DNA of 64,000 bases, from IMG/VR virus record IMGVR_UViG_3300000401_000001, positions 3,786-67,785 of that record; one strand, written 5' to 3'. The stretch is from a virus. Every line of letters starts with the position of its first letter. The stretch's first letter is position 1. The translations under genes were made by a program, and so were the position numbers. Positions 1-64,000 of this stretch are shown one piece after another. The notes under the pieces were generated by a model that did no database searches, was not told where the DNA came from, and saw only the letters and a program-made list of their open reading frames with translations.

Positions 1-2
1 CT

Positions 3-3000
3 TACTGCAGTAAAGCCAATGTTTCTAGAACGAATCCAAGGAACAAAAGAAGAACTGATAATACGATCTCCCAGTGACTGATTGTCAATTCTGGAAACTA
101 CTCTTGTCCTGAGACCAGTACGAGTTTGGCGAGTTGTAGTTGTAACTCTTTGCCAGCCGCCCCACCACCAAGCTCCACCTTCTCTTCTGGTTCCTTGCCA
201 AGTTGTCTGCCAAGCATTCCACTGAATAGGAGCAAAACCTTGGTTATTTGCATTTAGCCTTTGTCGAGTTGCCTCAAAGTCGCCCTCAATGTTGACGACA
301 CGAGCGGGAGCACGAGTTGTATCAGTCCAGTCGTCAGATGTAGGAACAAGATCAACCCTACCAATAAACGTAAACACATTAAATGGGTTTACGTTTTCTT
401 GGCGTGATGCATAAGGTTGGCTAATTACATCAATTTCTTCATAAGGAAGTGTTAGAATATTTGCAGGATACTTCTGAATATTTGTAGACTCACTTTCATT
501 TAGTTCCAGCGCAACGTTAGTTGTGAAGTGCGATGGTCTACAAATACCACCATTGATATCAATAGACGCTTTGTAATCGATATTATTTGTTGCAGAAGAG
601 CTATGGTCTGTGAAGTCATCAACAAGGATACCATTCTTCAGTCTATCAAACCCATCTGCATCATATGCTTTTACATTTAGTGCATCATTTTCCAGCAGGG
701 ATAGAGTAGTATAATACTCGATAGTTCTCAGACGCGATTCGATCTGACCAATATCTTCCATGGTATATCTGCGCTGCTGATGCAGTTCGATATAAATGTC
801 TTCATTTACATCATAGACATATGGTCTATATGTAATAGTTGCTAACAACATCGCATTATCGATGTTTTCGGGGAGAGTTGGGGTCTCTGCGGGGACTCCC
901 ATTACCAGATCTAACAGACCTGTATGAGTCATAAACAGTTTATCTCTACGAGCAAGATAGTATTCATAGTCAAGACGAATCTCTTCTTCTACCTTGGGGA
1001 TATTAAAGATAGTCGAGCCACCAGCACCACCTGTGCTAGTAAACACACGAGAATCGAAGTCAAGAGAAATACAATTGGTAAAGTATGGCTGCTCCACAGT
1101 ACCAGAACCAGATGCAAGCTCACCTACAGCAGGTCTGAAGTCGAGGGTGTCTGCCAAATATCTGGTGTTATTGTCGCCTATGATTCTAGGAATCTCAGAA
1201 TATCTGATACCAGAATACGACTGATTGGAGAAGTAATCACCAGATGCTTCGTGAATGAAGTAGTCAAATACGACCGCAAGTTTTCTACGGGGTTCGGGAG
1301 TATTCTTCTTTCTGACCAGGGTAGAAACGCCATAATAGAAAGAAGTTTGATTGGTATCCAACTCAAAACTTGCTGTGATGTTTCTAGAACCTCTATTCAG
1401 AGAACCATCAGCGTCATCAATAACCGCTACGAGGGGATTATCTGCATCATCAACACCATCGATGGTTTCGCCGAGGTTAAAGAATTCGGAACTTACTGGT
1501 ACTACATAAAGACGCAGGTTATTTGAGTTAAAAGAAACTACTCTTGCACGAGCACCACTTGTCCTACCCACAACAATAGAACCATTATCAAAAAAGACGT
1601 TTTCTGTCAGAATCACATAAGGAATTTGTGCTTCATTATCGTCATTCGATTCATATACGGCATGAACCTTATATACATCATTAAGTGCGAATGAAATCTC
1701 TTCATCCTCAATACGAGTGCCGTAGAGATTGCCATATGCCAGACCATAATTAGTCACATCAGTCTGGTTTCTGGTGCGAACAACCTTCATGACTCTCATT
1801 TTCGCAGCAGTCTTGATCTTCTTGGAAACGCTGTTGATCGAGACAGCAGCTGTCAGAGTCACCTGAGAGATATTTGCACTACCACCAGTACCATCATTAA
1901 GACCAGAAATCTGCAGAGATTGTCTATTAGCACCAAAAGAAACTGAGATGGTTGGATTGAGTTTTTCAGACTCAAGCTCAATATCAATATTGGTTCCAGG
2001 TGTCCAACCATAACCAGTATTGGTGTTAGAGCCTTGAGTGATGGTTAGAATATAGTTCTCGGTATCAAGAGCAGTGAACTGTTCATTTTCTGGAAGCGTA
2101 AATGTTACGTCACCAGAAGTGATTTGCTTGTTTGCAAATGTCTTAAATACAACAAACGATTCATCGCTGACAGACTTAATTGCCTCTCTAGGCATGTCTA
2201 TAGCAAGTTCGCCGTTTTGGGTTGTTTTCTTAGTGAAAATTGGACGCAGACGAACAAACTGTGCAGATGGATATTCACCGTCAGGAACAGTACCTTTTGT
2301 TCTTGATACATCAAGAGTAGCAGTCTGTTCACTAAAATTAAAGATTACAGGTGTGCCAGCATCTTTCTTATTGGAGATGCTATAGCCAATATTCGCTGCA
2401 TCAATACGAGTAATTCTCAAAGAATTGGTTCCCTTAAAGTCGGTAGAAGTTGTAGTTACAACTTCGCCAGGACGAAGAGAAGTTGAGAAGCTAGTGCCAA
2501 AACCACTTACTGTCTGAGTGCCAGCTTGATCGACAGTGATTGTCACGCCAGGAATTGCTTCTGCCTTGGTGAGTGCAATAGATGCAGTAAAGACTACTGT
2601 GTTATCTGTTGGCGACGCCCTACCAACCACCGATCTAGCATCCGATTGGTCATATTTCCAAACAGCATCAACTACGTCAAGAACTCTACCGTCTCTCTCT
2701 ACAACTTCACCAATTTGGAATTCGCCAGATACTTCACTAAGCAATGCATTGTCACCAGATGCGGCGTAAACAAAACCTCTAGCGCCAGACTGACGACCAA
2801 CAATAACTTCACCTGCATTAAGTGTTTGGCTGCTAGCGAAGTTAATAGCAGTAAACATTTGCACATCAAACATGTACAAGCGGTATCTACTACCGTCAAC
2901 TTCTAGCTGAAGTGTTCTTGCCTTACCGATGATATTACCCTGGACAGACGAAGATGGTCCAGTACCAGACCAATCATCACGAAGTTCGATAATCTGATAG

Positions 3001-4253: not shown

Positions 4254-4254
4254 C

Positions 4255-5790: not shown

Positions 5791-5812
5791 TGCTTAGTTA
5801 CTACCTTCCTTT

Positions 5813-5819: not shown

Positions 5820-5824
5820 GATGT

Positions 5825-10806: not shown

Positions 10807-10813
10807 TATTTAT
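10807..10813 (-). promoter_or_regulatory. Late promoter ATAAATA overlapping the stop codon of the giant gene
   Basis: Plus strand tatttat at 10807-10813, 13 nt before the ATG at 10793. Confidence 0.6.
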
Positions 10814-13800
10814 TGGAAGATCTGAGTAGGATCAAAATCTGTCAGAATGGTTGCACCAGTCTGAACTGTAAAGATGATCGAGTTGGAATATACAGGTGTT
10901 GCTCCAGCAGCAGTGATCGCGACGCGATATTCGTCACCATCATCAGCCTGAGTTGCAGGACCAGTTGTGTATACTGCTTGATTTGCACCCGTAATGTTAT
11001 TCCAATCGGTCTCACCATACTGCTTACGCTGCCATTGATAATTCAGAGGAGTAGATCCAACTTCGTTAGTTCCACTGATAATAAAGTCTGCAGATATGCT
11101 GAATTCAGCGGTATTGCCTTGGTTGATCGTGGTGTTAGTAGGTTGATTTCTAATCACGATATAACCAACATCAATAATGATAGGATTGCCTTGCTGATCA
11201 AGTGCTTCACCTGCATATACATCGAATCCACCATTCACTGCGGATCCAGTAGGAGGTACATAATCATCGGGAACTTCTGTCTCTACAGAGACAGAAGCTT
11301 TCTTGTAGCCGATACCAGCACTCTTAACGTCAATTCTGGAGATACCCATCAGTGCTCTAATTCGAGCATCGAAGCCAGATGCGGAAATTACATCAACATT
11401 TGGTCTTGATGTGTAACCATCTCCAGGAGATGTGATGATTGCACCGTTCAGCTTTCCAGAAACGATATCAGCAATTGCTTCAGCACCGCGACCCTTAACA
11501 GTTCCAGTATACTCAAATGTAATCAGAGAGTTGGAAGACTCGATGAGAGCAACCTCACGCTCGTCACTTTCACCTTCGATTTGCAGAACATCACCCGCCT
11601 CGATGGGAGGTACAACTGTTGCTGCGATAACGTCTGCGTCCGAACCAATGTAGGAGAACGCAACGAATGTAGATCCAGCACGAGGAATCTCAGCAAAGAT
11701 GATTCTAGAACCGACAAGCTGGTAGCCAACTCCAGGCTCCTGAATGACACCATTCAGAGAAACGATAATGTTATTTTCTGGGAGAATTGTGTTGGAGGAA
11801 ACACCCTCTGTCAGTGTCAAGGAGTAGAAACCACCAAGGTATCTCAGGTTAAACGAGGAGCGGAGAGAGTCGAACTCAAAGCTAATATCATCAAGTTGCC
11901 TGAGCTTACCAACATAGTAACCGATAAATTCAGATCCAATGCTGGGTGGTTCAGTAAACTGAATTCTGTCGGAGAATGCAGAGTATGCATTTGAGCCACC
12001 AGGAGGCTGCAGAACACCGTTAACAAATACCAAGAGGTGACCAGCTGGATCTGGGAAGTATGCTTCGCCATTATTAACTGTCAGCTTAAAGTCAGTTTGT
12101 ACACCGTCAAATCCACGGAAGAATCTATCACAGCGTCCAAGCAGACCCTTAGACTGAGTTACACCAGCATACCAACCATAATCAGATCTGATTGTGAGGT
12201 TTGATGGGAATTCGCCATTAACATCTTCCAGCCAAATTCTTCCAGTATCACCACTGATTTGCTTACCAGCGATGCGACCGTAGGAAGAGTATTCGGTTAC
12301 TGTTACATTATTAATATTTGCGAGAATAACAGGGAAATTATTCAGGTTCTCAAACTTACCAAGAGCTGTGCCACCAGAAACCAGTTCATTTGGATCTGTA
12401 GTTGTAGTGCCATCTGCTGCCGAGCCATATGGCTGAAGGTTGGCAATCCAGATTTTATGAGTTCCAGTATTCTGAGTGTCATCGAAGTAATCGGTAACAA
12501 CTGCAGTCCATCCAGGAATTTTGGGAACAGTACCGCTAAGGAGATATACAAGATCGCCCTTCTGGAACGAACCAGTATAACCACCATCTCTCACAACATC
12601 AGTAACATCACATTCGATTGTCTTTTCGGCATGAATGAATTGGTTGAGCTCGATATCTCTGAAACCAGTTGCTGTGATGTTTGCAATATTCAGAATACGA
12701 TCTGTGATAGAACCATAAATGATGTCTCCATCGAGGAAGTCGTCGGCAATGGTCTCAATATCAATCTGAATACGACCACCAGTATTTCCAAACAGAGCAC
12801 CAGCAGAATTCTCATATGATGTGATATCTGCTTCAGCACCATTATTCTTGTTAAAGAACATCTCACCGACAGAGAAAGAACCTCTGTCTGCATTGATTAG
12901 AATTCTTTCTGTGCTTGTTCCAGTAATATCTGCTGTGATACCACTATCAACGCCCTCAATAGTGTTTGTGTCGGAGAATACCCCATTCAGATTCTCAACA
13001 TAAATCCAACCCTGATCACTTTGGTCGCCAGTTAATGTAGATGTTTGTAGGATCGTTCCATAGTTCGTGGGGGATCCCTGAACCTGTACGATCTCGCCAT
13101 TTGTGAATCTACCAGATGCATTATCAATGAAGAACTTCTGATAAATTTTGATAATTTCAGCTTCATTATTTCTAGTTCTGATAACCTCAGATCTTGCATT
13201 AGATGCAGTACCAATGAGGATATCTGCAAGATTAAATCCAGCACTGATTGGGGTGTCGATATCAGGATTGCCGTATACTGCGGAAGTGCGAGTGATACCA
13301 GAACGAACGGTTGTCTGTAGGATCATTTGACCCGTGAGACCAGTATCGAGAGCAAAGGCTCTGAATCTAGCATCATGGCGAAGTTCGCGAGCAATCTCAA
13401 ACCACTGAGGTTGTGCATTCAGAACATAGTAATACTGTTGATCTTGCAGACTCTGCTCAATATCATCAGAAGCTGGAATATACTGAAGAATATCACCGCG
13501 AGAGAAGAAGTTTGGACGGTTGATGCGGACAACATTTTCTCTTCTCTCAAACCCAACTTCGATAGTTGGGGTGAGCAGAATAAGTTCAGGATCTGTGTTG
13601 TAGTCTTCACCTTCGTCATACAGATTGGTCAAATTCTGAACGTCTGTATTATTGATATAAGTTACAAAGTTTGTGCTTGGTGCCTTAGATCTGCTCAGAG
13701 CAAAGTATGCAAGATTGAGGGAGCTGTCAATTCTAAATTCCGAAGACTCCTCTTCATACTCAAATCTGTTGTTAATGGCAGCAGTCAGAGTTTCATCTTG

Positions 13801-16800
13801 ATACAAGTCATATCCATTCCACTGAGCAGCATTATTGTTATCATAGAGAGCACGCTTAACATACTCACGAATGCGAGTTACATAGAACAGAAGATGCTGT
13901 CTTGTGACACCCTCAAAGGCAATGAAGTTGCCTTCTCCATCAAACCAAGAGTTAACAACCTTGAGCATACCCTGGTTACCACCAGTATTGAGATCATAAA
14001 TCAGACCGTCCAGGATGGGATCGGCAAAATCAATAGTTGCTCCAGTTCCAGGATATTGAGTAGATGTTCTCTCAAATGACTTGGCTGAGATCGCTTGCTT
14101 ATTAAACAGAATGTGTCTAGCACACTTGCGATCGGAGTAAGAACCACCACCAATCGTGTCGATCATTAGATCAAACAGTGCTTCTGCTGCAGTTGTAACA
14201 TTGTAGCAAGTATAATACTGATATTCAGTATTACTATTCCATGGTGTTTCACGAGTAACTGTAGTCAGATGGCTGGGATTGCCAGCAGCTGCTTCACTAA
14301 TGGTATTTGTGACAATATCAAACAGTGTTTCGATTGTAGATGCAACTTGAGGGCATGTTTGGTTCCAATCAGCAGCAGCACTATCATAAGTGATAGTGAC
14401 ATCACGAACTGCCATTTCGGGAGTGTACTTGATTGGCCAAATATTTGGCAGTGTTTTTGTGATAGTACCATCCTCAATATTTGTGGGAGTGGTAATCGTA
14501 TCAGTAACAATTCCAATCAAGTTGCTAATCGCGTCAGCAACATTCTGGCAGTTTGTAACAGTATCTTGAGTTACTGTGTAACCACCTTGATTGTATGGAT
14601 AGAAATCCAAATCAAGATAGAACTTCTGCGTATAACCATGCGAACCTTGGATCGTGAGAGTATTACCTCTCATAACCTCGATTGCAAGATCTCTTGCCTT
14701 CTCAAAAATCCAAATGGATTCTGTAGACTGAGTTGCAATGTGCTGGAGATTGCTATTGTTTACATAGAACTCAGCAGCACGGAAGACCTTATTGTTTCCA
14801 CCATAACGGAGGTTCCATACCATCGCCTGAAGAACATCAGTTACGTCATGAACGCAATTGATTGCCCCGCCAGGAATAGAAAGACCAGGGAACTGTTGCT
14901 GACCCAGATATACTGCTTCTTCAGCAATTAGACGAGTGTTTCTCTCGATAATGTGGGAAGCGTCAATAAAACGATCATCAACTGCATTGCGCTCATAAGT
15001 CTCAACATCAACAGCATCGAGAGAAGAAGTTCCGATACCACCAGGAACAGTGGCGCCACCTTCTTCTTCATTATAGATGTAAAGATTATCTCTACCGAGA
15101 CCGTTTCTGATCGCAAGAATACAAAGTTCAGAAGCAATCTTGTAAGTGTCGATTGCAGCTTCAGCTTCATTCTCAATATGCAGAAGACTTTCATCTTCTG
15201 GATTCAGATACAGTTTCGCAGCATCCCAAGTTGCAGAATTGCCACCGAGTCTGAGATCATGGATGATCGCATCAATAACACCCATCACATCAGAAGCGCA
15301 CTTATCTGGACCATTGGGAATCTCAAGGTCAAGATACTTGGAGAGATCATTCATGGTATATACTGCTTCCTTAGCAATCAATTCTTTGTTTGCTTCCAGA
15401 AGATTTGCAGCATCAATCATCTGGTTCTTTGTTGGATCCAGATACTCATAACCTTGAGTGTCTACAGTGATTGTAGTGTCTCGATATGCGGGAATTTCAG
15501 TATACTGAGCGACATAGTAATCATCTTGGAGATCCGAGATAATACCAATTTCCGAAGCGGTTGTACCAAACGACAGAAGTGTATTGTTGATTGCATGATG
15601 TACAAGTTTCTTAGTGAACTCAAATGCGTCCAGCATTGCGCTGAGTTCTTTCTCAACATGAGTAACAATATTATTGCTACCAATATAGAAGTCGAGAACA
15701 CGCTGAGTAGAAGAATTGCCACCAGTCAGAAGATCAGTAATAACCGCAGGAAGAATGTATTGCTTGATATCTCTAGCACATACTGCATCGCCGTTAAATC
15801 CAGGGATTACCAGGAAATCATATTCCGTACCGTTGATAGTTGCTTGATACTTGGCATTCAGCCAACCAACAACTTCTTGAGCGATGTAGTCTCTATTCTT
15901 CCAGATCTGGTTACCAGCATCGCGATATCTTTGTCCAGTTGGAGCAAGGATATCTGCAATTGTATTGGAAAGATCAATAATTTCATTCTGAATTGACTGA
16001 GATGCTGGAGATGCAAAGTTATTGGGGATACGAAGAATATCCGTGTACTTAGTGCCATTATATGTCTCCAGATCCAAAGATGTGGTAGTAATCACATAGT
16101 TGCAGACATTAGCGACTTCAGTCCATGCAAATACAGACTGAAGAAGCTCATTACCAACGTATGCGAGATCTCCACTCTTAGTGAGATAACCTCTACCAGC
16201 AATCACGCTATTGTAATTGCCACCATACTTAATGTCCTCGATAATTGCCTTCAGAATATATTCTTTAGTATCGCGGAGACAGAAGTTTGTACCTTGCTGA
16301 GGTCCAATACCATCTGCGGTATCACCAGGCATGATGAAATCGGGATACTTTTCCTTCATCAAACCAACAGTAGTTTCTGCAATCCAATCGAGATTGAGTT
16401 CCAGAATTTTGGCACACTCTCTATGCTCATCTCTAGACAGATTGATGTCTTCGACGATAACCTTTCTTTCATCATAATTAACACTCTTCGCTGTAGTGGA
16501 AGAATTGGTCTGACCTGTATACACACCATAGACTTCCTCAGTGCTCATAATGATGGGTTGTTCTGCATTCAGAGCAAAGGAGATATTCTGGTTATCTGTT
16601 GGGAATGTCGTACCAGGGGTAAAGTTTGCGCTATAATCCGACTCACCCTTCTTAATGATAAAGTTGTCGAGGTGACCAGAGAGAGTATCTGCACCGTTCC
16701 AGCCAGCAAAGATTCTGAAGGGTCTCTCCAGGTAGCTATTGCTATCGGAATAGTCACTTCCAATCTGAGTGCCGTTTACAAACAGTTTAGTGATATTTGT

Positions 16801-19800
16801 GGTTCTGGTAAGTGCAACATGATGCCAGTTATCTATCGTCATCCCATGAGCACCAGAGATTCTATCAGATCCATTGACCCAGAATCTGATGCTGTTTCCA
16901 TCAAGATAGAGAACAGGAGAACCTGGGAGGGAAGAGTTATCAGCTCTAGTGTCGAAGATATACTGGATACCAGTCAAACTGTCAGGTCTAATCCAAGCTT
17001 CGATTGTGAAGTCATCTTGCTCAAACTTGACTACATCTGAGAGTGGGTGTGAAAGATTACCGCCAGACTGGAATCTGAGAGAATTAGTACCAGCAATCTT
17101 CTGCAAAGATGTGATGGCAACATCGCCGTTCACACTAATTCTGGTATTTGTGATGTACTCTCTATTTGTAAATACACCAGAGATAGAATTTGTATAAAGC
17201 CATCTCAGACCAGTGTTAGTGCCCTGGACAGTGAATGTAGTTCCAGAAGATGCGCCAGTGATAACATCGCCAGGGAAGAAGAAGCCATTGCCACCCTTAT
17301 CCTTATAAGCAACTTTCAGAACACGAATAGTCTCATTTTCCTGATAGGAGCCATCGCTCACAATAGGAAGTGCATTGATATTTGTTAGATCCCCTGCTGC
17401 AATAGCTGTGGTTGCGATGGTAGTGAGAGTATCCAAAGCAGCCTGAACATCAGCACAGTTGTTAATGTCTTGGTTGTTACCCAAGCCATAGTTAGGATCG
17501 TAAGTATGACCTTCAGTTGCCGAAGTTAGATAAGGACCAGGATATGTGATTGGATCATAAACAAGTGTAAGGTCTTTTTCATACAGAAGGTTGTTGATAG
17601 CACGCTTAGCGAGATCTCTTGCCTTCTCAAATGCAGTGATTGATTCTGCTGTTTCACCAACCAAACCATTACTAATAGGAGTGCCATTAGCATCAAAGTA
17701 GAATTTGGTGAACTTAACTGTGGCATAGTTTCCATCGCCTCTGATGTCAGCAGCCAAAGCATCAACAAAATAACCAATGTCACGACGGCACTTGTTCTCG
17801 GTTGCACTATATGTGCTAGGTTGTACCAAGTCAATCAAATCGGCAAGAGAACCAGCCAGAAGAACTTCAGACACATTGTCAAACAGAGTTTGCAGCGTTG
17901 CCTGAACATCAGAGCAGTTATCAGGACCATAATTTAGAGTGTTGCTGCCAGGAGTTCCATATGGATTTCCAGGGGAAGGATCTGCAGTAATACCAGTGCC
18001 ACTGGAACCTCCAGTCACGCGCTCATTGTAAAGATTAAAGGTGTCCACACCAATTGTTACAGAGCCAGTAAGCATATTTGACAATGCTTGCTGCATGTAA
18101 GTAAGTGCTTTGCTGAATGCATACTCAGTTGCTTCTGCTTCATTGTTTACATAGAGGAAAGTCAAGCCATCCTCACTGAAGTACATCTGCAGGAACTTAC
18201 GAGTATAAACAGTTCCACCTTGGAACATATCCATCGACAGTGCATCGATGAAGTGGCCAATATCTCTCTTACACTTAACATCACTTGGGATGGGCAGAGT
18301 TGGATACTGAACAACCATGTCCTCATAGGACTGTGCAACGATATAATCCTTATTAAGAGCAATCAAACGATATGCATCAGCATAACGGCTGAACTGATCG
18401 GTCTGATTATCGCCAGGATAGTAGAAACCAGGATGCTGAACTGCAATTTCTGCATTAGCAAAATCAACAATTTCCTGCTTGTTGGCGAGAATCAGATTGG
18501 ATGCATCATACCATCTGTTGAGAGCATCAGTGACGGTATTGCCATACTCAATAGTGATGGAACGGATAGTATCATTTTCAGCCAGAGCGCCACCAGTCAG
18601 ATTTTCATACTCAATTTCGGTAGAACGAACTTCCTCAAAATCAAGGAAGTCTGCATTAATACGCTGGCTTCTGTCATTGAGAAGAACAGGAGTAATGGTT
18701 GTCTCGGAGATATTATCAAGAATGACATTCTGGTTTGTGAGAGAGATAAGACGCTCAAAAATCAAACCAAAGAAGCTGGAACCCTTATTGATAACGAGAG
18801 TATCAACAACATCACCAAGTCTAATATCGCCTTGGATTGTATCGTTAAGATTGTTTGTATTGGAAGTGATCAGTTCTCCATCAATAAAATCTGCAACCGT
18901 CTTCTTAATGAAATACAGAACAGGTGGATTCAGGTTAGTATCGACACGAATAACTTCACCGACAGCTCCAGAAAGACCACCAGTTACTTGAGAACCAGCC
19001 TCAAACTCAGTACCATCGACAAGATTTACAGAAACAACAGGGTCTCTATAAGGAGCAATTCTGGTAATTCTTGCTGCAATATTAGAGCTTGCAGAATAAA
19101 TGATGTCATTCAGATTGATGTTATAAGTTCCAGTCTCAAATTCTGCAGTACCTGATGTCTTCGACAGCACCAGAGTGGAATCGATATTGCCATCAAGATC
19201 GATATTTGTTTCTTCGACCTTTGCAGTATCGCCTCTCATGTTGGTGACTGTCTCACCAAATCTATAGATTGTTTGCTGGTTTACATTTTGGATACTTCCA
19301 ATGAGTGCACTAAAACCTGTTCTTGAGACATCAACACGCTCATTTAGTTGGAAAGGACCGCCAACAATATCAACAATATCGATAGAAGTTGCACCAGTGT
19401 CAACAACTCTTGCTCTTGCTTCAGACTCAAAACCGTTAATAAAGTCACCAATCGAAGGGAAGATGCCGCCGATAGTGTTCAGATTCAGTCTAGTGATAGG
19501 TAGAATCTCAATCTCAACATTTCTGTAAACAACCTTAGAGTCAGGTCTGGGCGCTTCATCGAAGACAATCTCATTACCAACAACAGTGTAAGACTCGCTA
19601 GGTGCCTGAATTACACCGTTAACAGTCACCAGAAGCTGATTGTCTTTAACAATAACTTGCTCACCCTCAACTGTCAGTGGGAAGTTCTTACGAACACCAT
19701 CAAACAGACTACTGATATCATCGATCTTCTTAACGATAGAGGTAAGAATTTCCTCAGAGTTTGTCAGTCTCTTCTTACGGAAAAGAACTTCAGAGTTGTT

Positions 19801-22800
19801 AAATGCTGAGTAGATTGGTTGTGCTGCACCAAAAGAAGTAATTTGATTTACATTAGTGTATTCACTAATGTTTACTTGCTTGGTGAATTCTGTACCGATC
19901 TTACGACCAGAAACATCCTCACCACCAGTCAACTGCAGCTGGCCAAAGAGGTTAAAGCCTGCTGGGTGGTTGTTCTCAAGAATCTGCTTCTTCCACTTGT
20001 TAATAGGAATAGTGGACTTGATAACATAAGAGAAGTTCTGGTAGAAGTAAGAATCCTGAATCTTCTGAACGATTTCAGAAGGCTTACCGATATCATCGAT
20101 GAATCTGCCAGGAGTTTTAGTCAGTGCATCGATATTCAGAACGCCTTTTGCGAGATTGACATTATCAATAACACCAGAAGCTCTAGAAACAACACCCTGA
20201 ACCTTACCACCAACTACAAATTCTCCTCTAGAATCAACAATCTTGAGAATCTTGGGTCCAATCTGCCAACCATCATTTGCAGACACATATCCATATGCAC
20301 TTGCCAGCTCATAGGATTCGCCCTGGAATACTTCTTCACCCTCAAGGAATCTGGAAGTTTCCACAACAGCCTCTGCTTTACCACCAAAAACTTCGGTAAG
20401 CAAAATTTGACGACCATCACCCTGAGTCAAGAACGTGATGAAGTTACCAGCTTCAGCATCAACAGGTGTCAGAGCAAAGCGCAGTTGATCAGATTCCAGA
20501 CCATTTGCTTCGCCAGCAATAGCATAATAAGTCTGAGTGGAAGATAGACTTGTCAGACCAACGCTACTTGGCTTGGGGAGAACACCAACAGTCGAACCGA
20601 CATCTTCAGCACGGAGCTGAATTTCTGCACCTGTGGTGATGCCATGTGGGAAGTTAAACTGCAGGTAATTGAGGTCAAGGTTTACAACATAAGTAAACTC
20701 GGACTTTAGGGTTACTGAGGGTTGGGAGGAATAACCAGATCCAGGATTTTTGATGATAATTTCACTCAAACGGTTATTTCTAACAACTGCAACAGCCTCA
20801 GCACCAGAACCACCACCACCTTCGATCACAACTGCGGGCTCTGATGTATATCCAGCACCAGGGTCTGTAATGCGAATTTGGGAAAGAATGGAAGTATTAA
20901 ACAGTTGCAGGTTGATTGGGAACGAGATCTCAGGGCGAAGAGTGTAGTCATGAGAATAACCATATCCAAATTCATTGCTCTTCAGAGTCTTGATTCTACC
21001 AATCTGCGTACCTGTAAGGAACACAGAAGCACCAGTACCTTCAGGTGGAATCACGACCTCAAGCTCGCCACCAGAACCTGAAAGTGTAGGGCCAAGGATA
21101 CCTTCTACAGAATCAACATCAACTACACCAAATGTATAGCCTTTGCCAGGATTTGTAAGATCAACCTTTGTAATTGTTCCAGATCCAACTTCATCATCAA
21201 GTTCGACAGTAATATTCACAAGACCACCTTCACCATCACCCTGGATCGGCACCTGAGTGTAAACACCAGCGGCATACTCAGTACCACCAGCTACAATATT
21301 GACCTTTTCGATCTTACGGAAAGAAGAAATATCCTCAATCACAGGCAGCTTCTTATAGAAGCCACCACGAGATACCATCTTGATTGTATTGATGGGTCCA
21401 ATAGCCTTCAGCGAGGTGGTGGAATAATAAGAATTGGGTTTATCGAATTCATCCAGACCAACTTCAGCATTCGTAAACTCAGGCTCAAATTCCAAGGGGA
21501 ATCTAAACTCAGTGTCGTTAATTACAGAAGAAATTCTGAACTTACCATCGAAAGGTGTCTTGATAACATCAATGAAGGAGTTTTCACCAACAGGAGAATC
21601 ATCACCAAGTCTAGAAGGATCGAAGTAGTATGTAATATTAGTAACTTCACCAGAAACAGTAAACTTAACTGTAGGAGTTTCCGTTGCAGAGGCAAGACCA
21701 GGAGTGCCCTCGCGCTCAATGACGTTAAAGGAATATTCCAGCTTAAACTGGTTGTCTTCAGAGAACGACAAATAGTATCCAAAGTTGGAAGGATCACTCA
21801 TATCAAAGATATAAGAATGATTCCTCACAAGAAGTAGTGTTGGGTGCTTAGATGCAATCTTAACTCTAGAAATAGCCCCCTGAGCAAACTGTGGTTCTGA
21901 ATCTGCTACAGCACGAATCTGGTAAATAAAGTCTCTAGAAGAGAAGACTTCCTTAACAAAGAAGGAACCATTAAACTGATCAGTAGTGAAACCTTCTACA
22001 AACAGAATATCACCAGCATTAAATCTATGAGGAGTCAAAGAAGTACAGTAGATAAGATCTGTTCTTACCTCAGATGTTCTAATGATATCTTTGTTCAGAT
22101 TTGTCGTCAGAACAACAGATTTTGCAGAAGTGATCCCATCGATAAATGCAATCTTGTTATTATCTTCTGTTGGGCCAGTAGTTACTTGACCACCAAGAGA
22201 AATAACATCACCAACAATAAATGTTGAGTTGGAATATACTTCAGAAATCTGAACTCTATAATCCGCAGAATCGTAAGGTCTGAAAGTCGCATAATCCGAC
22301 AGAGGATCATAAGTAAGAACATATTCCCATGTTACAGTACCATCGGTAACAGTACCTGAGGTGTGTGTTGGGGGAACGGTACTAGATACACCTGCAACAG
22401 TGCACTTGTACTTATTTCTACCATAGTACACATTCTCGTCGAGAGCATAAGACTTATTCTCTTGCCACTCATTCTCCAATGGTGCTGGCCATGGATAGTC
22501 GGATAGATCAACTTCCAGAGCAGGTGCAGCACTAATGTACTGCCACAGAACTCCACCATCGGTTACAATACCGATTTCATGTGTTGGTGGGATATCACCA
22601 GATGTTGCAGTATTTGTCGCAACGTAGATCTTACCATCACTATAGACTTGATCATCTACATTATACTGCTGTCCAATTCTCCACTCATCTTGAGGTCTTG
22701 TTACAGTGAAAGAGATTTCATCAATTGTATTCTGTTGATTTGTGGAGTTCTTAAAGCTGTCTGTATTGTTAAAATTACCAAAAATCTTACCAATCTTGTA

Positions 22801-25800
22801 GGTTCTGCCAAGACCAGGAGTATTCACAGCACCAGTGGGAACATCCACAATGGTTCCATATGCCTGAACGACACCGAGGCTATTCACCTGTTGGAGAAGG
22901 GTTCCTTTATCGAAGAGCACATCCTGGTTAAATGTGAATTCCAAGACATTATCGATCTTCTGGTATGATGCATCTCTAATGTAGAACTTAGGCGTTACCT
23001 TTGCATCAAGAATTAGCTTCTTACCAAGAGGTGTTGGAATTGTGGAAGTTTTAGATGCAAATGTATGAATGTTGCTATTAAAGGTGTAAGTTCCAGGATT
23101 TAGCTGAGAAGTCACATCGGAATAGTCGAGAATCTGCAGACCGCTAGCACCTTCATTCCAGATAGTAATGACAGGATTATTCAGTGTATTTACATTTACA
23201 CCCGTGGTCTCTACAAAGTCAAGAGCATCGGTATATACAGTAGATGCGATACCAGAATACAGATTTCTTGTTGTATGTCTACGATCAAACTTGATGAGAT
23301 TTACTTGAGAATTTGTAGAAGTGATCTCATACCTAGTTGTGGGAACTGGGAATGCAGCTTCAGTATAAGTAGCAACCGTATCAAAAATCAGATCATCGAT
23401 ATAACCGAGGAATACATTAGAGAGTGCTGGAGATGTTGGATCTCCAGATACGGTGACAGTATCAGCTCCAACATCAGTCGTGCTAACAACGCTAGAAACA
23501 TCAACGCCATCAAAATACAGATGGTATTCATAAGAACCAAGAGAAGGCTCTTCCTTAACGAGAGCAATGTGGTGCCATGCTTGATCCTGGATTGCTGTCC
23601 AGAAAGTAGAACCAACAGACAAAGTTGTGACCGTGCCAACACCAAATGTGTTGACATCAAGAATCATCTTGCCATAATTGGGGCTTCCGCTGTTACCATC
23701 GAGTGTTGCAACTACGCTATTGCCTTCATTATCTTCGATAGTGAAGAATTTGATTTCTGGGTTATTTCCTACATGAGCTGGGAGCATCTGCACCCAATTC
23801 GCTATAGTCCACTCAGAATTGACATTGACATTGGCGAACTTAATATTTGTTGCAGAATCGAGCTTGAGAGAGCCAGTACCAAACTTAAAGATTCCAGTAT
23901 CTACGCTTGCTGCAGAAGGAGCAGATAGTGTTACTGTAACGCTTTCTTGCTTAGTCGAGTCGAATAGAGGATTAGCAGCATCATCGAAACGATGTACAAA
24001 CGACTGTACAGGCTTCTGTTTATTTGCCAGGAAGATGACATCGCCAGAGTTATCAACAACATGAGTATTGACAGTAAAGCCAATGTTATTGACATCTTCT
24101 ACAGTTGTGCTATTGAGGAGAGTGCCATCATACTTAAAGTTCATCAAAATAGCACGCTGGTCATTATCCTCATAGCGAATAGCAGCAACAATACTGACGT
24201 TACCAAAGATATCTACTCTGATGTCAGCATGATTGATAGAATCGAAAGTTCCACTTGGTGCAATGATCTTAGAGAAGTAATATGTGGGGATCTGAACATT
24301 TGTAGAGATCTCACTCAAAGCAATCTTAAAGAATGCAAGTCCATAGTTCTTAGTTCCATTCCACATATCGCAGATGAAGAACAGATCATTTTGCTCATCG
24401 AGAGTGAAACGGGGGCGCTGAACATCACCACCAGCAATTGCAAGTCTCTTAACATAAGACATCTCAATATTGGCACCATCATATTCCATCTGACCAAACA
24501 TCAGATCATCATTATCACGGTCGATACCACAGAAAAGAATCTTGTTATCGCCAATATAATGCAGCTGATGCATTTGCTCACCTTCTGTGTCTGAGGAGAA
24601 CTTACGCTTCTCGATAACATCACCAAGGTTATTGAGCTGCATTACCCAAATATCATCGGGATCTGGAGAGTTTGTATCTGTCCAACCGCAGATATAAACT
24701 CTTTGCTCATCATCAAGATAGATATCACCAGCATAATCCCTACGAGTTCCGCCAGAAACACCAGCAATTTCTTTCTGCCAACGAACAATACCTTCTGGGT
24801 TGTTAGCATTGTCAAAACCAGACTGATACTTGGCAACTAGAATATCTGGGTTGTAAGAATCGTTTGACTGCGACTCGGTTTCACCAAGCAGATAGATCAG
24901 ATGATCTTCTTCACTGATTTCATCGAGATAGATAGATTTCCATCTAGCAACTTTTCTGCTAGCACTTGGAAGAAGGGTTCTATCCCAAATCAGAGAACCA
25001 AGATCACTGAATTTGGCGACAAAAGCCGAAGAATCGCCATTCTGTTGAGTTAACTGACCACAGACATAGATATGTCTCTCAGAAGAAACTACAGAATCAA
25101 AGATTTCGATACTTGCAGCATCTTCGTAGTATTCCGACAGCCAGTAGTACGTCTTCTTAAACTGTTGAGGGTGAGAAACCCTAATCTGAGGGGGATTATC
25201 GACATCATACCCAAAACCAGAGTTGATGATATCAACTTGAGAAACTTTACCAGTAGTTTCATCCAGGATAATATCAAACTCCACATCCTGACCATTTTCT
25301 GAAATAATTTCGTAAGTGGGAGGAATTTGTTGATTATATCCAAGACCATCTTGCAGAACATCAATTCTGTTCACACCAGTAACAACACTGGTGTAAAATA
25401 CCTTATTAGTATTGTCGGTGATAACCTTAGAATTGACGATAATTTCGTCTTGAGCAATAAGTTCGTGATTTCCTGCAGTTACAATTTTTCCATAAGGAAC
25501 ATCATCGATGATTTCCTTGGTGTAGGATATAATTTCTTGACCTTGTACAGACTCAATCTGTGCAGAAGCGCCAAAGCCATCAGTACCTTCATTATTAAAG
25601 AAGAGGGTGTCTCCAACTTGATAGTCTTGACCAGGATTCTCAATAACGAAACCATCAATCTGTGCACTCTCAAATTTGGTAGTAGTTTCCACCTCAATAT
25701 CAACCCTAGAGTCTGGAGAAACTCTGGGGAAGTAATCATAGATCTGCAGAGCTGCTTCTTCTGTCAGTGCTTGTTGTTCAGCAAGCTCAAAAGGACTGAT

Positions 25801-30685: not shown

Positions 30686-32767
30686 TTAGAAACAGGAAGT
30701 GATCTCGGGATACTGGAAAGCATCAACTGGATAATCAATGATATTTATTGAGGTTCCACCATAGTTCCAACCAGCAAAGTTGTTAGGATCAAAGTTATTA
30801 ATGATGCTGGGATTGGTGACATAATCGATGGGGAATACCTCAGGATTAAAGATCGTGGGATCAACACCAGGGGGGATAATGATAGAATCTGTAGAAGGTA
30901 GTGCTACAATAGGAATACGATTTGTATTATCTGATGTGGCAGCTGCATTCAGGGGGCCAATACAAACGATTCCCTTTTCATAATCAACACTACCTACATT
31001 CTGATTCAGAATTACTTCCTTTTCATTTCTATTCGTGACTAGCATGAGGTTTCCTCTACCATCGTCACGGATATTTACAGGAACAAGAACTTCAGTTGTT
31101 GTATCTCCAGATGTAAACAGAACATCTTCAGTTTCTGAAAGTGAATCTTGAGTTCCATTTTCGGCAATTAGATCAGCAAGTGCCTCTGTATATCCTGTAG
31201 CATAAAACTTACCACTCTTGATGGATGAGAACTTAGGATTACAGCCATCAGGATCACCACCACCAAAGTTGCTGGGATTCTGAATTGGATTGCCGAAGTC
31301 CAAACATTGTGTGAAAACTTGCCCAAAACTAAACTGGTCAAGATTCTGACCGATAGTCATTTGAGTGCTAGTACCAGAAATTGCACTATCAGAAGCATCG
31401 ACCATAGAATTAAATCTGGACAACTCAAGTCTATTGCCAAATCTATTCTCTCTATTTTGAGAATTATACTGATCGATAGACTTCAGAATCTCTGTGCTGA
31501 GTTCATTTGTCGATCTAGCAGTCTCGTTACCATTAAAGAATGGATAAACCTTAGGTGCCAAGTAGTAAATGCGAGGATCAACGATGACTGGCTCAATTGA
31601 TGCCATCGAATACTTAAGAAGCTGATTCTTAATTCTCAGTTTAGTCGTAGTATTCAGATTAACGCCAGATTTGGAGCGAACTGCAATGTAAACTTTTCCA
31701 TAAACAGGTGGATTTAGCTTTTCTCCACCATATGCTGTAACTGCAGCTGCTTGTGGGTATATCTCAGAAACGATATGGGCATAATCTGCCTCTGTTACCG
31801 CTCTATTCTGCGTCGAGAATGCCCTAGGAGCTCTAAATTTGATGCTCAGGGCACTTTCCCTCTCTTCGCCGTCTACAGACCCGTCTATGGTCGCCAGAGA
31901 CATCGATGAGGGAGCGATAGGACGACCAACAGAATCTACTGCCTGTCCGATGAAGGCAAATTTTGTACAACCGTTTGCAAGCTCACCTGCAGTTCTAACA
32001 TATTGCAGAACAACAAATTCATTATCGATCAATTTGCGACCGAGAACACCATCTCCGAAAATGACTTTGTATCTGAGGTCTTCAGTTTCCTCCAGGAAGT
32101 AGACTCTGGAAGTAGAATTCAGATCAACAACATTATCTGTTGGGGAATATTCATCAATCTCTACGGACTGCTCCGAGGGCTTAACATATACTGCCAGAAG
32201 ACCAGTGTCTACGGATTCTGAAGGAATAATATAATCTTGCTTCTCAGCATCATTAACGGTGTAACTAAAAGTCAGCAGATTACCTTGGTAAATGACAATA
32301 TTTGCAAAATTTGCGATGCCTGTGTTCTGATCGACAGGTGCAGTTACATCTTTGAGAAGACAAAATGTAAATGTATCAACACTATTCTTAGAAAGGAAGA
32401 CATCACCCTTTCTAAGAGTTACTGTATCGGGGTATGCTTGACCACCAGGCAGTTGTGCAGTCTTTGCAGCGATTCTGACACACGCTTTTGATGCCTTAAT
32501 TGATCTTGGAGTATAGTTTAGTTGTTTTGCAATACGAACAACATTATCTCTAACAGTAGCCGACTCCAAAAACGCTTCGTTCATTGCCATGTTGGCGTTA
32601 AACGAAGTGTAATATGTGTTGTATGCAAGTACATCAATCAAATATGATGCAGCAGAACCCTCAAAGTCATAATCAGAGAACTCAGAGCGGGTTCTTAGAT
32701 ATGATTTGATCGATTCTTTAATCTCAAAGAAGTCTAGAGATGTAAGTTCCGAAGGTATTGCTGACAT
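30686..32767 (-). CDS. gp6: Baseplate wedge subunit gp6 (693 aa)
   Basis: LDFFEIKESIK.YL...EFSDYDFEGSA.SYLIDVLAYNTYY, ESATVRDNVVRIAKQLNYTPRS and QNRAVTEADY are hallmark gp6 motifs. Confidence 0.95.
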   Translation of the reverse strand: MSAIPSELTSLDFFEIKESIKSYLRTRSEFSDYDFEGSAASYLIDVLAYNTYYTSFNANMAMNEAFLESATVRDNVVRIAKQLNYTPRSIKASKACVRIAAKTAQLPGGQAYPDTVTLRKGDVFLSKNSVDTFTFCLLKDVTAPVDQNTGIANFANIVIYQGNLLTFSYTVNDAEKQDYIIPSESVDTGLLAVYVKPSEQSVEIDEYSPTDNVVDLNSTSRVYFLEETEDLRYKVIFGDGVLGRKLIDNEFVVLQYVRTAGELANGCTKFAFIGQAVDSVGRPIAPSSMSLATIDGSVDGEERESALSIKFRAPRAFSTQNRAVTEADYAHIVSEIYPQAAAVTAYGGEKLNPPVYGKVYIAVRSKSGVNLNTTTKLRIKNQLLKYSMASIEPVIVDPRIYYLAPKVYPFFNGNETARSTNELSTEILKSIDQYNSQNRENRFGNRLELSRFNSMVDASDSAISGTSTQMTIGQNLDQFSFGQVFTQCLDFGNPIQNPSNFGGGDPDGCNPKFSSIKSGKFYATGYTEALADLIAENGTQDSLSETEDVLFTSGDTTTEVLVPVNIRDDGRGNLMLVTNRNEKEVILNQNVGSVDYEKGIVCIGPLNAAATSDNTNRIPIVALPSTDSIIIPPGVDPTIFNPEVFPIDYVTNPSIINNFDPNNFAGWNYGGTSINIIDYPVDAFQYPEITSCF

Positions 32768-46011: not shown

Positions 46012-46070
46012 AGTATGGCACCCCAGAGGGGGTTCTGGGGCGCCAGGTGGACAGTTTGACCAACTGTCAC
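46012..46070 (-). promoter_or_regulatory. Early promoter with quasi-palindrome and stem-loop
   Basis: GTGACAGTTGGTCAAACTGTCCAC, then CCCCAGA-N6-TCTGGGG hairpin, then CATACT. Confidence 0.7.
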
Positions 46071-46561
46071 ATGGTGTAAAGGCGTGAGCGATAATTGTAT
46101 GCAAATCTAGTGCGATTGCCATGGATTCCCCACCCCAACCAGTTCCATGAATGTTTCATGTAATAGCTAATTGAGTATCCAGGTCGCTTTAGAACTGGCT
46201 CCAACTTTCGCCACTGAGATTCATTCACCATGTACCGAAGTTGTCCTGTCAGTGTATTGGGATCGCAACCATATTTGTTACAGAAACTACCCAAACCATA
46301 GTATCTACGTGATGTGGTCCATTGGATTAATCCAAAGCCACCACTACGGCAACCTCGATAAGATGTCTTTAGACCACCCTCGCAAATCATAGGAGTGAAG
46401 TTAGACTCCTGCTTGATGTTTCCCATAACTACAGCGAGAGCATTCTTGTCTCTAATTCCCCGAGACTGAAGGAAGCTTAGAGTTTTGTTTTCATTGTAAT
46501 TACAGTCAACACATTTAATGATTGGGGGAGGTGGTAAATGATTCATGTTTAGTACAATCAA
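46067..46561 (-). CDS. Phage tail lysozyme-like protein (Phage_lysozyme2-type, 164 aa)
   Basis: VMGNIKQESNF (catalytic Glu), GGFGLIQWT and L.GQLRYMVNE. Confidence 0.75.
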   Translation of the reverse strand: MIVLNMNHLPPPPIIKCVDCNYNENKTLSFLQSRGIRDKNALAVVMGNIKQESNFTPMICEGGLKTSYRGCRSGGFGLIQWTTSRRYYGLGSFCNKYGCDPNTLTGQLRYMVNESQWRKLEPVLKRPGYSISYYMKHSWNWLGWGIHGNRTRFAYNYRSRLYTM

Positions 46562-47706
46562 AGAACAGATTTGAGACGCAGGTATGTATTCATAGAGGTA
46601 GCAAGTTCTTTACTCTTAGCAGGGCGACGCTGCCCCCACTTAAGCATCACTTTCTTACCTTTATCATTCTTCTCTCTCACACCCTCAAATCGCTCCTCAT
46701 TAGTTGCGAACCATGCACCATTCTTCTGTAGAGTGAATGGCTGATTAATGGTGATAACTACACCAGAAACATCACAAATATCATAGAACACAGACTGGCC
46801 ACGGTTGGTGATGTTAACGTGCGTTGCGTTCTTTACACGGGCGGAAAGAATATCATACTTGGCATTAGTTAAGGAGAAAAGATAGTTACCCTTACCAATA
46901 CACAACAAGTGCTCATCAGAAACCAAACCAGTTGCTTTCTGTAGGCGATCAAGTACAATAGAATTAGGAACCCAGGAGAGAGCACAGTTTACAAGTTCGG
47001 CAACAAGAGTGCCAACCTTTTTACAATCTTTCTCCCATTGCTCACTCACATTATCCCAATATTCTGCCTCTTTGCTGTTGACGTAGAAATCACGAATAGT
47101 ATCGTTGATTTTATCTAGATCATGATAGAAAGAGAGAACATTAGGATACATCTTGGAGACGATAGCATCACGCTCTTCGCGATTGCTACCCTTAAACTTT
47201 TCCCCAGTGAGAGGATTGATATAGGTTCCAGGGGTGCAGTTAGTGCTATCGAACAAGAAATTGTTCAGAGTAGAGTTAAACGTACCAGAGCACACCTGAA
47301 TAGAATCAAATCCGTTCTGATAGTTCTTTACACTAACTGATACCTGCTCTCCGCTACAGAAAGTGATCAGCAAATCGCCTTTCTTTCCAATAGCGCGAAA
47401 CTCAGAATCCACGCACTTAAAGTCAAACTTTTCGTTGGGATACTGTTTAATAATGTCGAGAACAATAGCAAGAGCTACGCGATCAACATTAGTACGATAT
47501 TTAGACTTCAGAAACTTACCAAGAACATCGCGATCATTACAATAATCAACCCACTGCTCATTGAGAGAATCAGCAGACTGAGAGATGGAAACACCATGAT
47601 ACTCTGCCTCTTCCTGAAGTCGCGCAGCAAGATAGATTTCTGCTGCATCTTGGATATAGTGCTCGATAGAAGTTCCAGCACCTTGCTTTTTAGTTGTCTT
47701 TGCCAT
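46558..47706 (-). CDS. Putative PD-(D/E)XK restriction-endonuclease-like protein (382 aa)
   Basis: Early E helix, then KKGDLLI...VSVSVKNY....SIQ, resembling type II REase catalytic cores. Start placed at MAKTTKK. Confidence 0.5.
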   Translation of the reverse strand: MAKTTKKQGAGTSIEHYIQDAAEIYLAARLQEEAEYHGVSISQSADSLNEQWVDYCNDRDVLGKFLKSKYRTNVDRVALAIVLDIIKQYPNEKFDFKCVDSEFRAIGKKGDLLITFCSGEQVSVSVKNYQNGFDSIQVCSGTFNSTLNNFLFDSTNCTPGTYINPLTGEKFKGSNREERDAIVSKMYPNVLSFYHDLDKINDTIRDFYVNSKEAEYWDNVSEQWEKDCKKVGTLVAELVNCALSWVPNSIVLDRLQKATGLVSDEHLLCIGKGNYLFSLTNAKYDILSARVKNATHVNITNRGQSVFYDICDVSGVVITINQPFTLQKNGAWFATNEERFEGVREKNDKGKKVMLKWGQRRPAKSKELATSMNTYLRLKSVL

Positions 47707-47737
47707 TGCAAAATCACCCATTCGTGACTACATTGAT

Positions 47738-51466: not shown

Positions 51467-51479
51467 GTCAGCTTCACCT

Positions 51480-57327: not shown

Positions 57328-57333
57328 AAAGAA

Positions 57334-57888: not shown

Positions 57889-57894
57889 TTTAGA

Positions 57895-58695: not shown

Positions 58696-58719
58696 TGATT
58701 ACTTTGTCTCCTACTTTGT

Positions 58720-58727
58720 TATTTATA
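58720..58727 (-). promoter_or_regulatory. Canonical T4 late promoter TATAAATA
   Basis: Plus strand tatttata at 58720-58727, 24 nt before ATG 58695. Confidence 0.75.
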
Positions 58728-59531: not shown

Positions 59532-59556
59532 TTTTGCGTATCAATCTCCTTTTAGT

Positions 59557-59563
59557 TATTTAG
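59557..59563 (-). promoter_or_regulatory. Late promoter variant CTAAATA
   Basis: Plus strand tatttag at 59557-59563, upstream of ATG 59531. Confidence 0.5.
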
Positions 59564-59567
59564 TATA

Positions 59568-60440: not shown

Positions 60441-60443
60441 ATC

Positions 60444-61310
60444 TTATGCGTTATCAGCGTACTGAACTTGCGTGCCAAATACTTTCCAGCTAGAACCATC
60501 AAGATACATGAAGTAATTAATCACATCATAACCAGCACCAACAGTTAGATTGGCACTGTAGTTTGTAATTGCAGTATTTCCATTCACCCTAACACCACTG
60601 ATTGTTCCTGTACCATTGATTTGACGAATGATAACCTGTGCAGTGTAAACAAAGCCAGCAACTGCAGGAACATTGTTAAAGTTGATAATAAAGTTGCCGT
60701 TATAGTTTGTTGGGTTCTCTGTCAGAAAAACATTTGCTTGAGAGTGATCAACAGTAGCTACACTAGACTTAGAGAATGAAATAACTCTTTCTTTCGTCTG
60801 CCCAAACTCAAAAGTAGAACCAGCGACCATTCTCAGGTGCTGATTAACAGCAGCATTATTATAGTATCTGTATGCGCTTAGATCTTCATCAGCACCGATA
60901 AGAGTCCAAGTTGCACCACTCTCAATAGTTACTGTATAGCCATTTGCAATGGTAATAGGTGCTGCAGAGAAACCATTAGTAAACTCAACTCCACCATTAG
61001 CGTTGGGTCCAATAGTGATATTTTCACTAATAGTTGTTCCATTAGTTCTAATAATAGAACCCTCACCAAGAGAAGGTCCACCACCACCCACACTATCCCA
61101 ACCAGGATTACCAGCTTGCGCATCCTGCTTATAGATTTGTGCCTCATCTTCGGTTGTATTGTACACCAGCGTACCAAAAGCTGGTGTACCCAAAGCATCG
61201 ATTTGTGTTTGATTTAGGTTTGGGAGATTGAGCTGCTCTGTAATTTGCAGAGCGGTAACAATCGCTCTGGTAGAGGCATCAATCTGGTTTCCTATAATTT
61301 TGGTGGTCAT
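60444..61310 (-). CDS. Tail-fibre-like structural protein (288 aa)
   Basis: IIRTN..TISENITI....NGFSAAPITIANGYTVTIESGATW motif common in marine phage fibre proteins. Confidence 0.6.
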   Translation of the reverse strand: MTTKIIGNQIDASTRAIVTALQITEQLNLPNLNQTQIDALGTPAFGTLVYNTTEDEAQIYKQDAQAGNPGWDSVGGGGPSLGEGSIIRTNGTTISENITIGPNANGGVEFTNGFSAAPITIANGYTVTIESGATWTLIGADEDLSAYRYYNNAAVNQHLRMVAGSTFEFGQTKERVISFSKSSVATVDHSQANVFLTENPTNYNGNFIINFNNVPAVAGFVYTAQVIIRQINGTGTISGVRVNGNTAITNYSANLTVGAGYDVINYFMYLDGSSWKVFGTQVQYADNA

Positions 61311-61329
61311 TTATTCTGCTCGTAAAGTT

Positions 61330-63999: not shown

Positions 64000-64000
64000 A

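Follow-up and report, generated by a model that had tools for sequence, protein, structure and literature searches.

CCGG is absent from a T4-like cyanomyovirus contig and from nearly all of its main-clade relatives, probably through selection by a CCGG-cutting nuclease

What keeps a short word out of a large phage genome altogether, and does its absence go beyond what the composition of the genome would predict? The question is raised by CCGG, a palindrome that is the recognition site of HpaII and MspI, in a stretch of viral DNA of 64,000 bases (hereafter the window; positions 3786-67785 of the single 75,018-base contig IMGVR_UViG_3300000401_000001). We found 0 copies of CCGG on either strand of the window (CCGG-free stretch 1..64000, no strand), and 0 copies across the full 75,018-base contig that holds it. 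The number expected in the window was 38.5 under a second-order Markov model, 68.5 ± 8.3 in dinucleotide-preserving shuffles and 124.9 from base composition (42.1% G+C). A first-pass annotation of the same DNA had reported that the word appeared to be absent and had proposed a Markov-corrected comparison of tetranucleotides as a check; the count confirmed the absence, and in the comparison CCGG was the most depleted of all 256 tetramers, followed by GGCC at 0.43 of expectation. CCGG was also the only 4-bp palindrome at zero in the window.

The absence was equally visible from the flanking bases. CGG was preceded in the window by T, G or A (114, 89 and 78 cases, respectively) and never by C, as the first-pass annotation had noticed, and CCG was followed by A, T or C and never by G. 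The other words that it had described as readily found were indeed present: GGCC, GCGC and CGCG occurred in 27, 73 and 45 copies in the window (32, 87 and 48 copies in the contig), and CCWGG in 147 copies in the contig.

Nearly all genes of the contig lie on the minus strand, and we used the non-overlapping minus-strand open reading frames (ORFs; simple longest-ORF calls, covering 93% of the contig) for a codon-aware null model, in which synonymous codons were shuffled within each gene, preserving the proteins and the codon usage. In 200 shuffles the contig was expected to hold 81.4 ± 7.5 CCGG, with a minimum of 63, against 0 observed. The bulk of the expected sites (74) lie where an NCC codon meets a following glycine codon, GGN. 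At this junction, none of the 559 Thr/Pro/Ala/Ser codons preceding GGN was NCC, which elsewhere makes up 15% of such codons, and the favoured replacement was NCT. The remark of the first-pass annotation that Thr-Gly, Pro-Gly and Ala-Gly pairs occur here without CCGG therefore held. Likewise, the proline codon CCG was used in 0 of 362 cases before a codon starting with G (16 of 683 elsewhere), and the arginine codon CGG in 0 of 193 cases after a codon ending in C (16 of 777 elsewhere). The depletion of CCGG thus exceeds the effects of composition, neighbouring bases and codon usage; with the proteins constrained, escape from CCGG would have taken place at synonymous positions.

The contig is collinear with Synechococcus phage S-SZBM1 (Kyanoviridae, Shenzhenivirus; host Synechococcus CB0101), with 76-86% nucleotide identity to S-SZBM1 positions 134,646-177,834 and 1-32,910, and we therefore consider it a 75-kb piece of a T4-like cyanomyovirus genome of ~178 kb. 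The full S-SZBM1 genome (177,834 bases) also contained 0 CCGG, against 155 expected under the Markov model, 390 from composition and 231 ± 11 with the codon-aware shuffles. A single ORF of 6,622 amino acids in the window (10810-30678, minus strand), which corresponds to gp068, a giant virion structural protein of S-SZBM1, carried no CCGG across almost one-third of the window.

The two genomes could be aligned over 68.7 kb, with 17.7% of the positions differing. In each genome we picked out the tetramers that a single change would turn into CCGG and kept those for which the other genome differed exactly at the deciding base. None of these 422 substitutions yielded CCGG, while about 224 were predicted by the genome-wide substitution spectrum if they were neutral; purifying selection against CCGG still acts. 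Host-type DNA (Synechococcus MIT S9451, PH41509, Cyanobium and others) kept CCGG at 0.8-1.0 of the Markov expectation, with 4-16 sites per kb. The strong selection against the word that the first-pass annotation had proposed is therefore supported by the codon-aware null, by the substitutions and by the CCGG-rich hosts.

We gathered relatives of the contig from IMG/VR with the gp6-type baseplate wedge gene (30686..32767, minus strand; 92.5% identical to S-SZBM1 gp6), which served as a marker only and stands outside the feature itself. Three gp6 queries were used, the best 80 loci were taken for each query with about 20 kb per contig, and the clade boundaries given below are approximate owing to this sampling. 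The 80 window-type loci (gp6 identity 57-77%, 1.06 Mb, 36-45% G+C) contained 0 CCGG against 862 expected under the Markov model and 1861 from composition. The 81 S-RIM2-type loci, with a gp6 about 41% identical to that of the window, contained 1 CCGG in 0.97 Mb against 578 and 1191, respectively. Thus, the pooled 161 metagenomic relatives had one CCGG in 2.0 Mb. Among whole genomes, S-RIM2 had 0 copies, as S-SZBM1 did, and Syn9 had 1; the sole CCGG of the 177-kb Syn9 genome (NC_008296) is found at position 90,004.

In the gp6 tree, built from 193 rows with FastTree, with Pelagibacter phage HTVC008M as the root and long basal branches, the window-type and S-RIM2-type loci formed one clade of 142 rows with 99% local support, hereafter the main clade. 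All but one of its rows (141 out of 142) were free of CCGG, and the remaining row had a single site. The sister group (50 rows), which takes in S-CAM9, S-N03 and many low-G+C contigs, comprised 20 rows with normal CCGG, 17 depleted rows and 13 CCGG-free rows, the last falling into at least 6 separate subclades. S-CAM9 had 37 CCGG in 175 kb (139 expected), S-N03 had 37 in 23 kb (64 expected), and S-CREM1, which belongs to another cyanomyovirus genus and was isolated on the host strain of S-SZBM1, had 8 in 178 kb (107 expected). In the main clade the absence of CCGG is therefore an old, fixed trait; elsewhere it is partial or convergent, with at least 6 independent losses among the subclades of the sister group. 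That the depletion is graded in S-CREM1, S-CAM9 and S-N03 suggests an external, dose-dependent agent.

Phages outside this group served as controls. The Pelagibacter myovirus HTVC008M had 19 CCGG against 15.6 expected in 42 kb; the cyanopodoviruses P-SSP7 and Syn5 had 27 against 31.8 and 186 against 197, respectively; and the cyanosiphovirus S-CBS1 had 107 against 135. In 80 IMG/VR cyanopodovirus loci with P-SSP7-type portal genes (713 kb, 37-44% G+C), some of them from the metagenome series that also supplied the myovirus loci, the count of CCGG was 690 against 627 under the Markov model. Because CCGG was near expectation in the controls, an artefact of sequencing, assembly or databases is ruled out for all practical purposes: podovirus contigs of that metagenome series have the word at expected levels, the absence recurs in the independently sequenced isolates S-SZBM1, S-RIM2 and Syn9 and in 160 metagenomic contigs, and we consider the chance of such an artefact negligible. 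The controls likewise exclude explanations that hold for all phages infecting these hosts. A different word, GGCC, was strongly depleted in the cyanopodovirus loci (147 against 642 expected) and in P-SSP7 (6 against 40), and not depleted in Syn5 and S-CBS1.

The strong preference for NCT over NCC before GGN follows a C-to-T route, and C5-methyltransferase genes were present in 42 of 381 host-family genomes. Both observations would suit a purely mutational process, in which the cytosine of CCGG is methylated by a host or phage methyltransferase and the 5-methylcytosine decays by deamination to CTGG/CCAG without any selection by a nuclease. We consider this very improbable. Vertebrate CpG stays at about 0.2 in spite of such decay, and the survival of 0-1 site where hundreds are expected, in several genomes of 175 kb, would take far more hypermutability than is known for 5-methylcytosine decay. 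The products CTGG and CCAG were not in excess (observed/expected 0.96-1.14 against the Markov model), and the failure of all near-CCGG substitutions to create the word amounts to a ban on gain as well as a faster loss. Furthermore, the podoviruses replicate in the same hosts and are unaffected, and S-SZBM1 has no annotated C5 methylase, its 'cytosine' methylase being of the Dam type.

The absence of CCGG is probably the result of selection by a CCGG-cutting nuclease, a trait inherited from the ancestor of the main clade. CCGG arising in phage DNA would be removed because, in the course of an infection, DNA that bears it would be cut by a double-strand endonuclease that recognises the word. To this extent the HpaII/MspI-type activity that the first-pass annotation had proposed is the most sensible reading of the data, apart from its link to one particular gene, which is considered below. 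Avoidance of restriction sites is well known in phages: staphylococcal phage K is reported to lack GATC, and Bacillus phages are poor in GGCC. Bancroft and Smith reportedly found in 1988 that cyanophages of Anabaena/Nostoc lack restriction sites of their hosts. A general survey of restriction-site avoidance has been published (Rusinov et al. 2018; PMC6286503). The present case resembles such avoidance in virulent phages in that a short palindromic site is purged from a large lytic genome, mostly at synonymous positions, while the host retains it. It differs in the totality of the loss, which is common to a whole deep clade infecting many host lineages, with gp6 of its two halves as divergent as described above; in that no cognate host enzyme was found among the host-family genomes searched; and in that phages of other families keep CCGG although they infect these hosts as well. 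We found no report of the absence of CCGG in cyanomyoviruses in the literature, in a search that did not extend to subscription journals, where an older mention is possible.

The gene to which the first-pass annotation had pointed, there placed at 46558-47706, is a restriction-endonuclease-like gene of 387 amino acids (46558..47721, minus strand) with a predicted PD-(D/E)XK fold of the HinP1I/MspI type and no adjacent methyltransferase. Pfam and PHROG searches with the protein gave no match, and sequence searches of the Protein Data Bank (PDB) with the protein and its family returned nothing usable. In particular, Endonuc-MspI (PF09208) and R-HINP1I (PF11463) did not match the protein, 36 homologues or 10 distant family members, and the HpaII family (PF09561) did not match the protein. 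Homologue clusters of the protein numbered 95 at 90% identity and 194 at 50%. The AlphaFold2 model of the protein had a pLDDT (predicted local distance difference test) of 91.3. Foldseek with this model listed HinP1I first (probability 0.97) and MspI weakly, and in a VIA-align all-against-all comparison HinP1I (Z 6.6, 209 residues) and MspI (Z 6.3, 190 residues) were the top two of 48,161 chains, with moderate Z values, followed by other PD-(D/E)XK nucleases. According to language-model features, which gave the sole link to these sequence families, the nearest ESM Atlas clusters were annotated as HaeIII-, HinP1I-, MspI- and HpaII-type. The 10 distant members had no Pfam match to HaeIII, HinP1I, MspI or HpaII, so the language-model link to HaeIII stays a lead only.

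The 36-member alignment showed H21, Q24, D25, E28, R109, K114, D116, K132, Y134 and Q142, among others, to be invariant, and S130 to be conserved in at least 90% of the homologues, around a block KGDF...ISVSLKNYK. Judging from their order and the fold, E28, D116 and S130-x-K132 would be the counterparts of the catalytic residues of MspI and HinP1I. The two best structural matches, R.MspI (C^CGG) and R.HinP1I (G^CGC) (PDB 1sa3, 1ynm; monomeric type IIP), both cut 4-bp palindromes made of G and C only, and they share with the 387-amino-acid protein an arrangement in which an acidic residue of an N-terminal helix (E28) is followed by D116 and then by S130-x-K132. The protein differs from them in that it has no sequence match to their Pfam families, is about 130 residues longer and has only a putative specificity; moreover, its partner in relatives is an amino-methyltransferase in two ORFs and not a C5 methylase. 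As modelled, it is very probably a restriction endonuclease related to the cutters of such palindromes.

Of 67 related loci, 50 have a methyltransferase directly after the nuclease gene. It consists of two ORFs in permuted order: the first starts at motif IV, VVANPPF (Pfam Eco57I), and the second carries the S-adenosylmethionine-binding motif I, DPACGDG (Pfam N6_Mtase). Examples of this arrangement are L336:12406-13750, L332:7125-8448 and about 45 other loci of relatives. In L336 and L360, which were checked by hand, the second ORF was one base out of frame with the first, which could reflect a split enzyme or a programmed frameshift. The place of the methyltransferase is held in the window by a phage tail lysozyme gene directly downstream of the nuclease gene (46067..46561, minus strand; Pfam Phage_lysozyme2, E 4e-15). 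A tblastn search for the partner methyltransferase found none in the contig or in S-SZBM1, and none was present among the ORFs neighbouring the nuclease in the window.

We compared the presence of this methylase with the CCGG content in those loci that are long enough to expect at least 8 sites. CCGG was present in 35 of the 40 methylase-bearing loci, in many at the expected level, while all 11 methylase-less genomes, the contig and S-SZBM1 included, had 0 CCGG (Fisher p = 9e-8, the rows not being phylogenetically independent). Among the 4-bp palindromes, this rule of 'no methylase, no site' holds for CCGG alone. In the nuclease tree the methylase-linked state was in the majority and most likely ancestral, and the methylase was lost on at least 2-3 occasions, always in a CCGG-free genome. 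Most simply, a genome free of CCGG can do without the methylase, in which case the site of the nuclease must contain CCGG. We give about even chances that the site of the 387-amino-acid enzyme does so. The loss of 6-bp palindromes in the contig and S-SZBM1 (24 of 64) was dropped as evidence; the same loss was seen against base composition in the podoviruses, the siphovirus and the Pelagibacter phage.

Is this gene, then, the cause of the purge, given the link to it that the first-pass annotation had suggested? Among 50,697 phage records it was found only in S-SZBM1 and Prochlorococcus phage P-RSM6, and with two cultured carriers it cannot account for a purge in hundreds of cyanomyoviruses without it. 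S-RIM2, Syn9 (1 site) and the roughly 2 Mb of main-clade relatives are equally free of CCGG regardless of the gene, and a causal link was not borne out. The annotation had itself named equal depletion in all cyanomyoviruses, whatever their gene content, as an outcome that would refute its reading; this is largely what we found within the main clade, although not throughout, as S-CAM9, S-N03 and S-CREM1 keep some CCGG. Instead, the purge predates the 387-amino-acid nuclease gene and is independent of it. This gene would encode a divergent enzyme of the HinP1I/MspI fold whose methyltransferase was lost here and in other CCGG-free genomes, a loss that would be harmless if the site contains CCGG (CCGG, ACCGGT or TCCGGA). 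The phage would then be able to cut the CCGG-rich host DNA, or the DNA of rival phages, and spare its own. The gene, in other words, probably benefits from the CCGG-free state and is not its cause.

With selection by a CCGG-cutting nuclease as the preferred explanation, the place where that nuclease is encoded has to be weighed separately. We lean, with modest confidence, towards an agent outside this phage, on a host chromosome, a host mobile element or a rival phage, and in this lineage some of the pressure may come from the methylase-less enzyme of the phage itself. The data establish the absence with its statistical weight and its spread over the phylogeny, the continuing purifying selection, the controls, the fold of the protein and the association between methylase and CCGG; from these patterns we infer the nuclease as selecting agent, the source that encodes it and the specificity of the 387-amino-acid enzyme.

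Several results weigh against this reading. The same avoidance of CCGG was sought in phages of other families that infect the same hosts (the 80 podovirus loci, P-SSP7, Syn5 and S-CBS1) and was not found; normal CCGG in podoviruses is hard to square with a common host enzyme, especially as podoviruses do avoid GGCC. Profiles of RE_HpaII, Endonuc-MspI and the window nuclease family, which cover these known families only, had no match in 401 host-family genomes; for MspI the negative is weak, since that profile had no match in any control genome either. In five complete cyanomyovirus genomes the HpaII, MspI and HaeIII families had no match above threshold. Of 17 strains tested, S-SZBM1 lysed a single one (PMC9146016), and a host range this narrow makes the argument from a generalist phage weak for this lineage; together with the immunity of the podoviruses, it speaks against a common host enzyme. 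As for the site of the 387-amino-acid enzyme, the NPPF motif of the partner is the usual signature of an adenine methylase and CCGG contains no adenine, so that ACCGGT or TCCGGA would fit better, and ten 6-bp palindromes without CCGG were also absent from all methylase-less genomes. The adenine-type motif and these ten palindromes call for caution in assigning a site that contains CCGG. A match of the MspI profile in Syn9 (E 8e-4, 15 bits, inside regA) was judged spurious.

Some of the same results would be expected if the purge were self-inflicted, that is, if nucleases borne by the cyanomyoviruses shredded host DNA for nucleotides and killed co-infecting phages, with the absence of the site as the mark of self and the 387-amino-acid enzyme as the agent here. 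Only the T4-like cyanophages are purged, and the podoviruses and the siphovirus of the same hosts are not; about 400 host-family genomes gave no matching enzyme; members of the nuclease family were encountered solely on contigs of phages (64 IMG/VR loci), and the family is methylase-less only in CCGG-free genomes. The hosts, moreover, offer the 4-16 sites per kb such an enzyme would cut, and selection is ongoing in a lineage represented in culture by a phage of narrow host range. We nevertheless consider this account unlikely. The gene is carried by 2 cultured cyanomyoviruses only, and S-RIM2 and Syn9 have 0-1 CCGG with no HpaII-, MspI- or HaeIII-family match over threshold. The partial depletion in S-CREM1 and S-CAM9 is unlike the all-or-none outcome of a self-nuclease, the partner methylase is apparently an adenine enzyme, and the nuclease has a putative specificity. 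It is similarly doubtful that the cyanomyoviruses as a group use the absence of CCGG as a self/non-self mark, with phage-borne CCGG nucleases of the HinP1I/MspI-fold family in circulation, paired with a methylase in CCGG-containing relatives and alone in CCGG-free ones, to shred host chromosomes and rival phages, and with an arms race, not host restriction, keeping the clade CCGG-free.

Coliphage T4 degrades host DNA with EndoII and EndoIV and protects its own by hydroxymethylcytosine. A T4-like phage must likewise destroy host DNA and spare its own, and a site-free genome would serve the same end. Unlike in T4, the protection would come from the absence of a word and not from base modification, and the activity in cyanomyoviruses is putative. 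T4-like cyanomyoviruses are among the most abundant viruses of the ocean and kill a large share of the marine picocyanobacteria. A word banned across a deep clade of these phages and not in other phages of the same hosts indicates a strong CCGG-directed nuclease in the host-virus system, which bears on how cyanomyoviruses, without the modified cytosine of T4, degrade host DNA while sparing their own, and on what restricts them in hosts thought to be poor in defence systems. If the 387-amino-acid protein cuts a site that contains CCGG, it would represent a new family of restriction enzymes with an unusual two-ORF methylase partner. In practical terms, digestion with HpaII or MspI should spare the DNA of main-clade cyanomyoviruses and cut host DNA and most other viral DNA, which would allow a simple enrichment, and freedom from CCGG is a cheap signature for spotting main-clade cyanomyovirus contigs in metagenomes.

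Methylases and defence islands were also recorded. The product of S-SZBM1 gp120, annotated as 'cytosine-specific DNA methyltransferase' (L002:43952-44800), was considered as a CCGG methylase and rejected, as Pfam assigns it to the D12-class N6-adenine, Dam-type methylases (E 2e-30). Two islands of picocyanobacterial genomes (G193 and G262; L490 and L489, respectively) contain C5 methylases: L490:4234-7334 combines Vsr, a C5 methylase and a GHKL-type ATPase (HATPase_c_3), and L489:3586-6356 has a 686-amino-acid C5 methylase beside a DUF6339 protein. C5-methylase frames of about 690-700 amino acids at similar coordinates in several other 1.7-Mb genomes suggest that the DUF6339 island is conserved. 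Both islands are possible defence loci, and their neighbourhoods gave no clue to specificity.

Finally, other words were depleted in parts of the cyanomyovirus group. In the whole S-SZBM1 genome the RGCY words, which correspond to a CviJI-type site, were low against the Markov model (AGCC 0.17, AGCT 0.21, GGCC 0.33 and GGCT 0.44), and of these the window's contig showed only the depletion of GGCC (0.45). AGCT was absent or nearly so in some window-group subclades (e.g. 0-4 copies against 29-43 expected; L015-L019, L057, L062, L063, L079-L081 and others) and only about half-depleted in others, which points to a second, lineage-specific purge. The P-RSM6-like contigs and one distant contig (L341-L347, L350, L351 and L389) had no CCGG, GGCC, CGCG or GCGC. 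Lastly, NYUL01000008.1, labelled as part of the gammaproteobacterial metagenome-assembled genome (MAG) CPC44, has a psbA 93% identical to the phage copy, 39% G+C and 3 CCGG against 31 expected from composition, and has the look of cyanomyovirus DNA that was binned with a bacterial genome.

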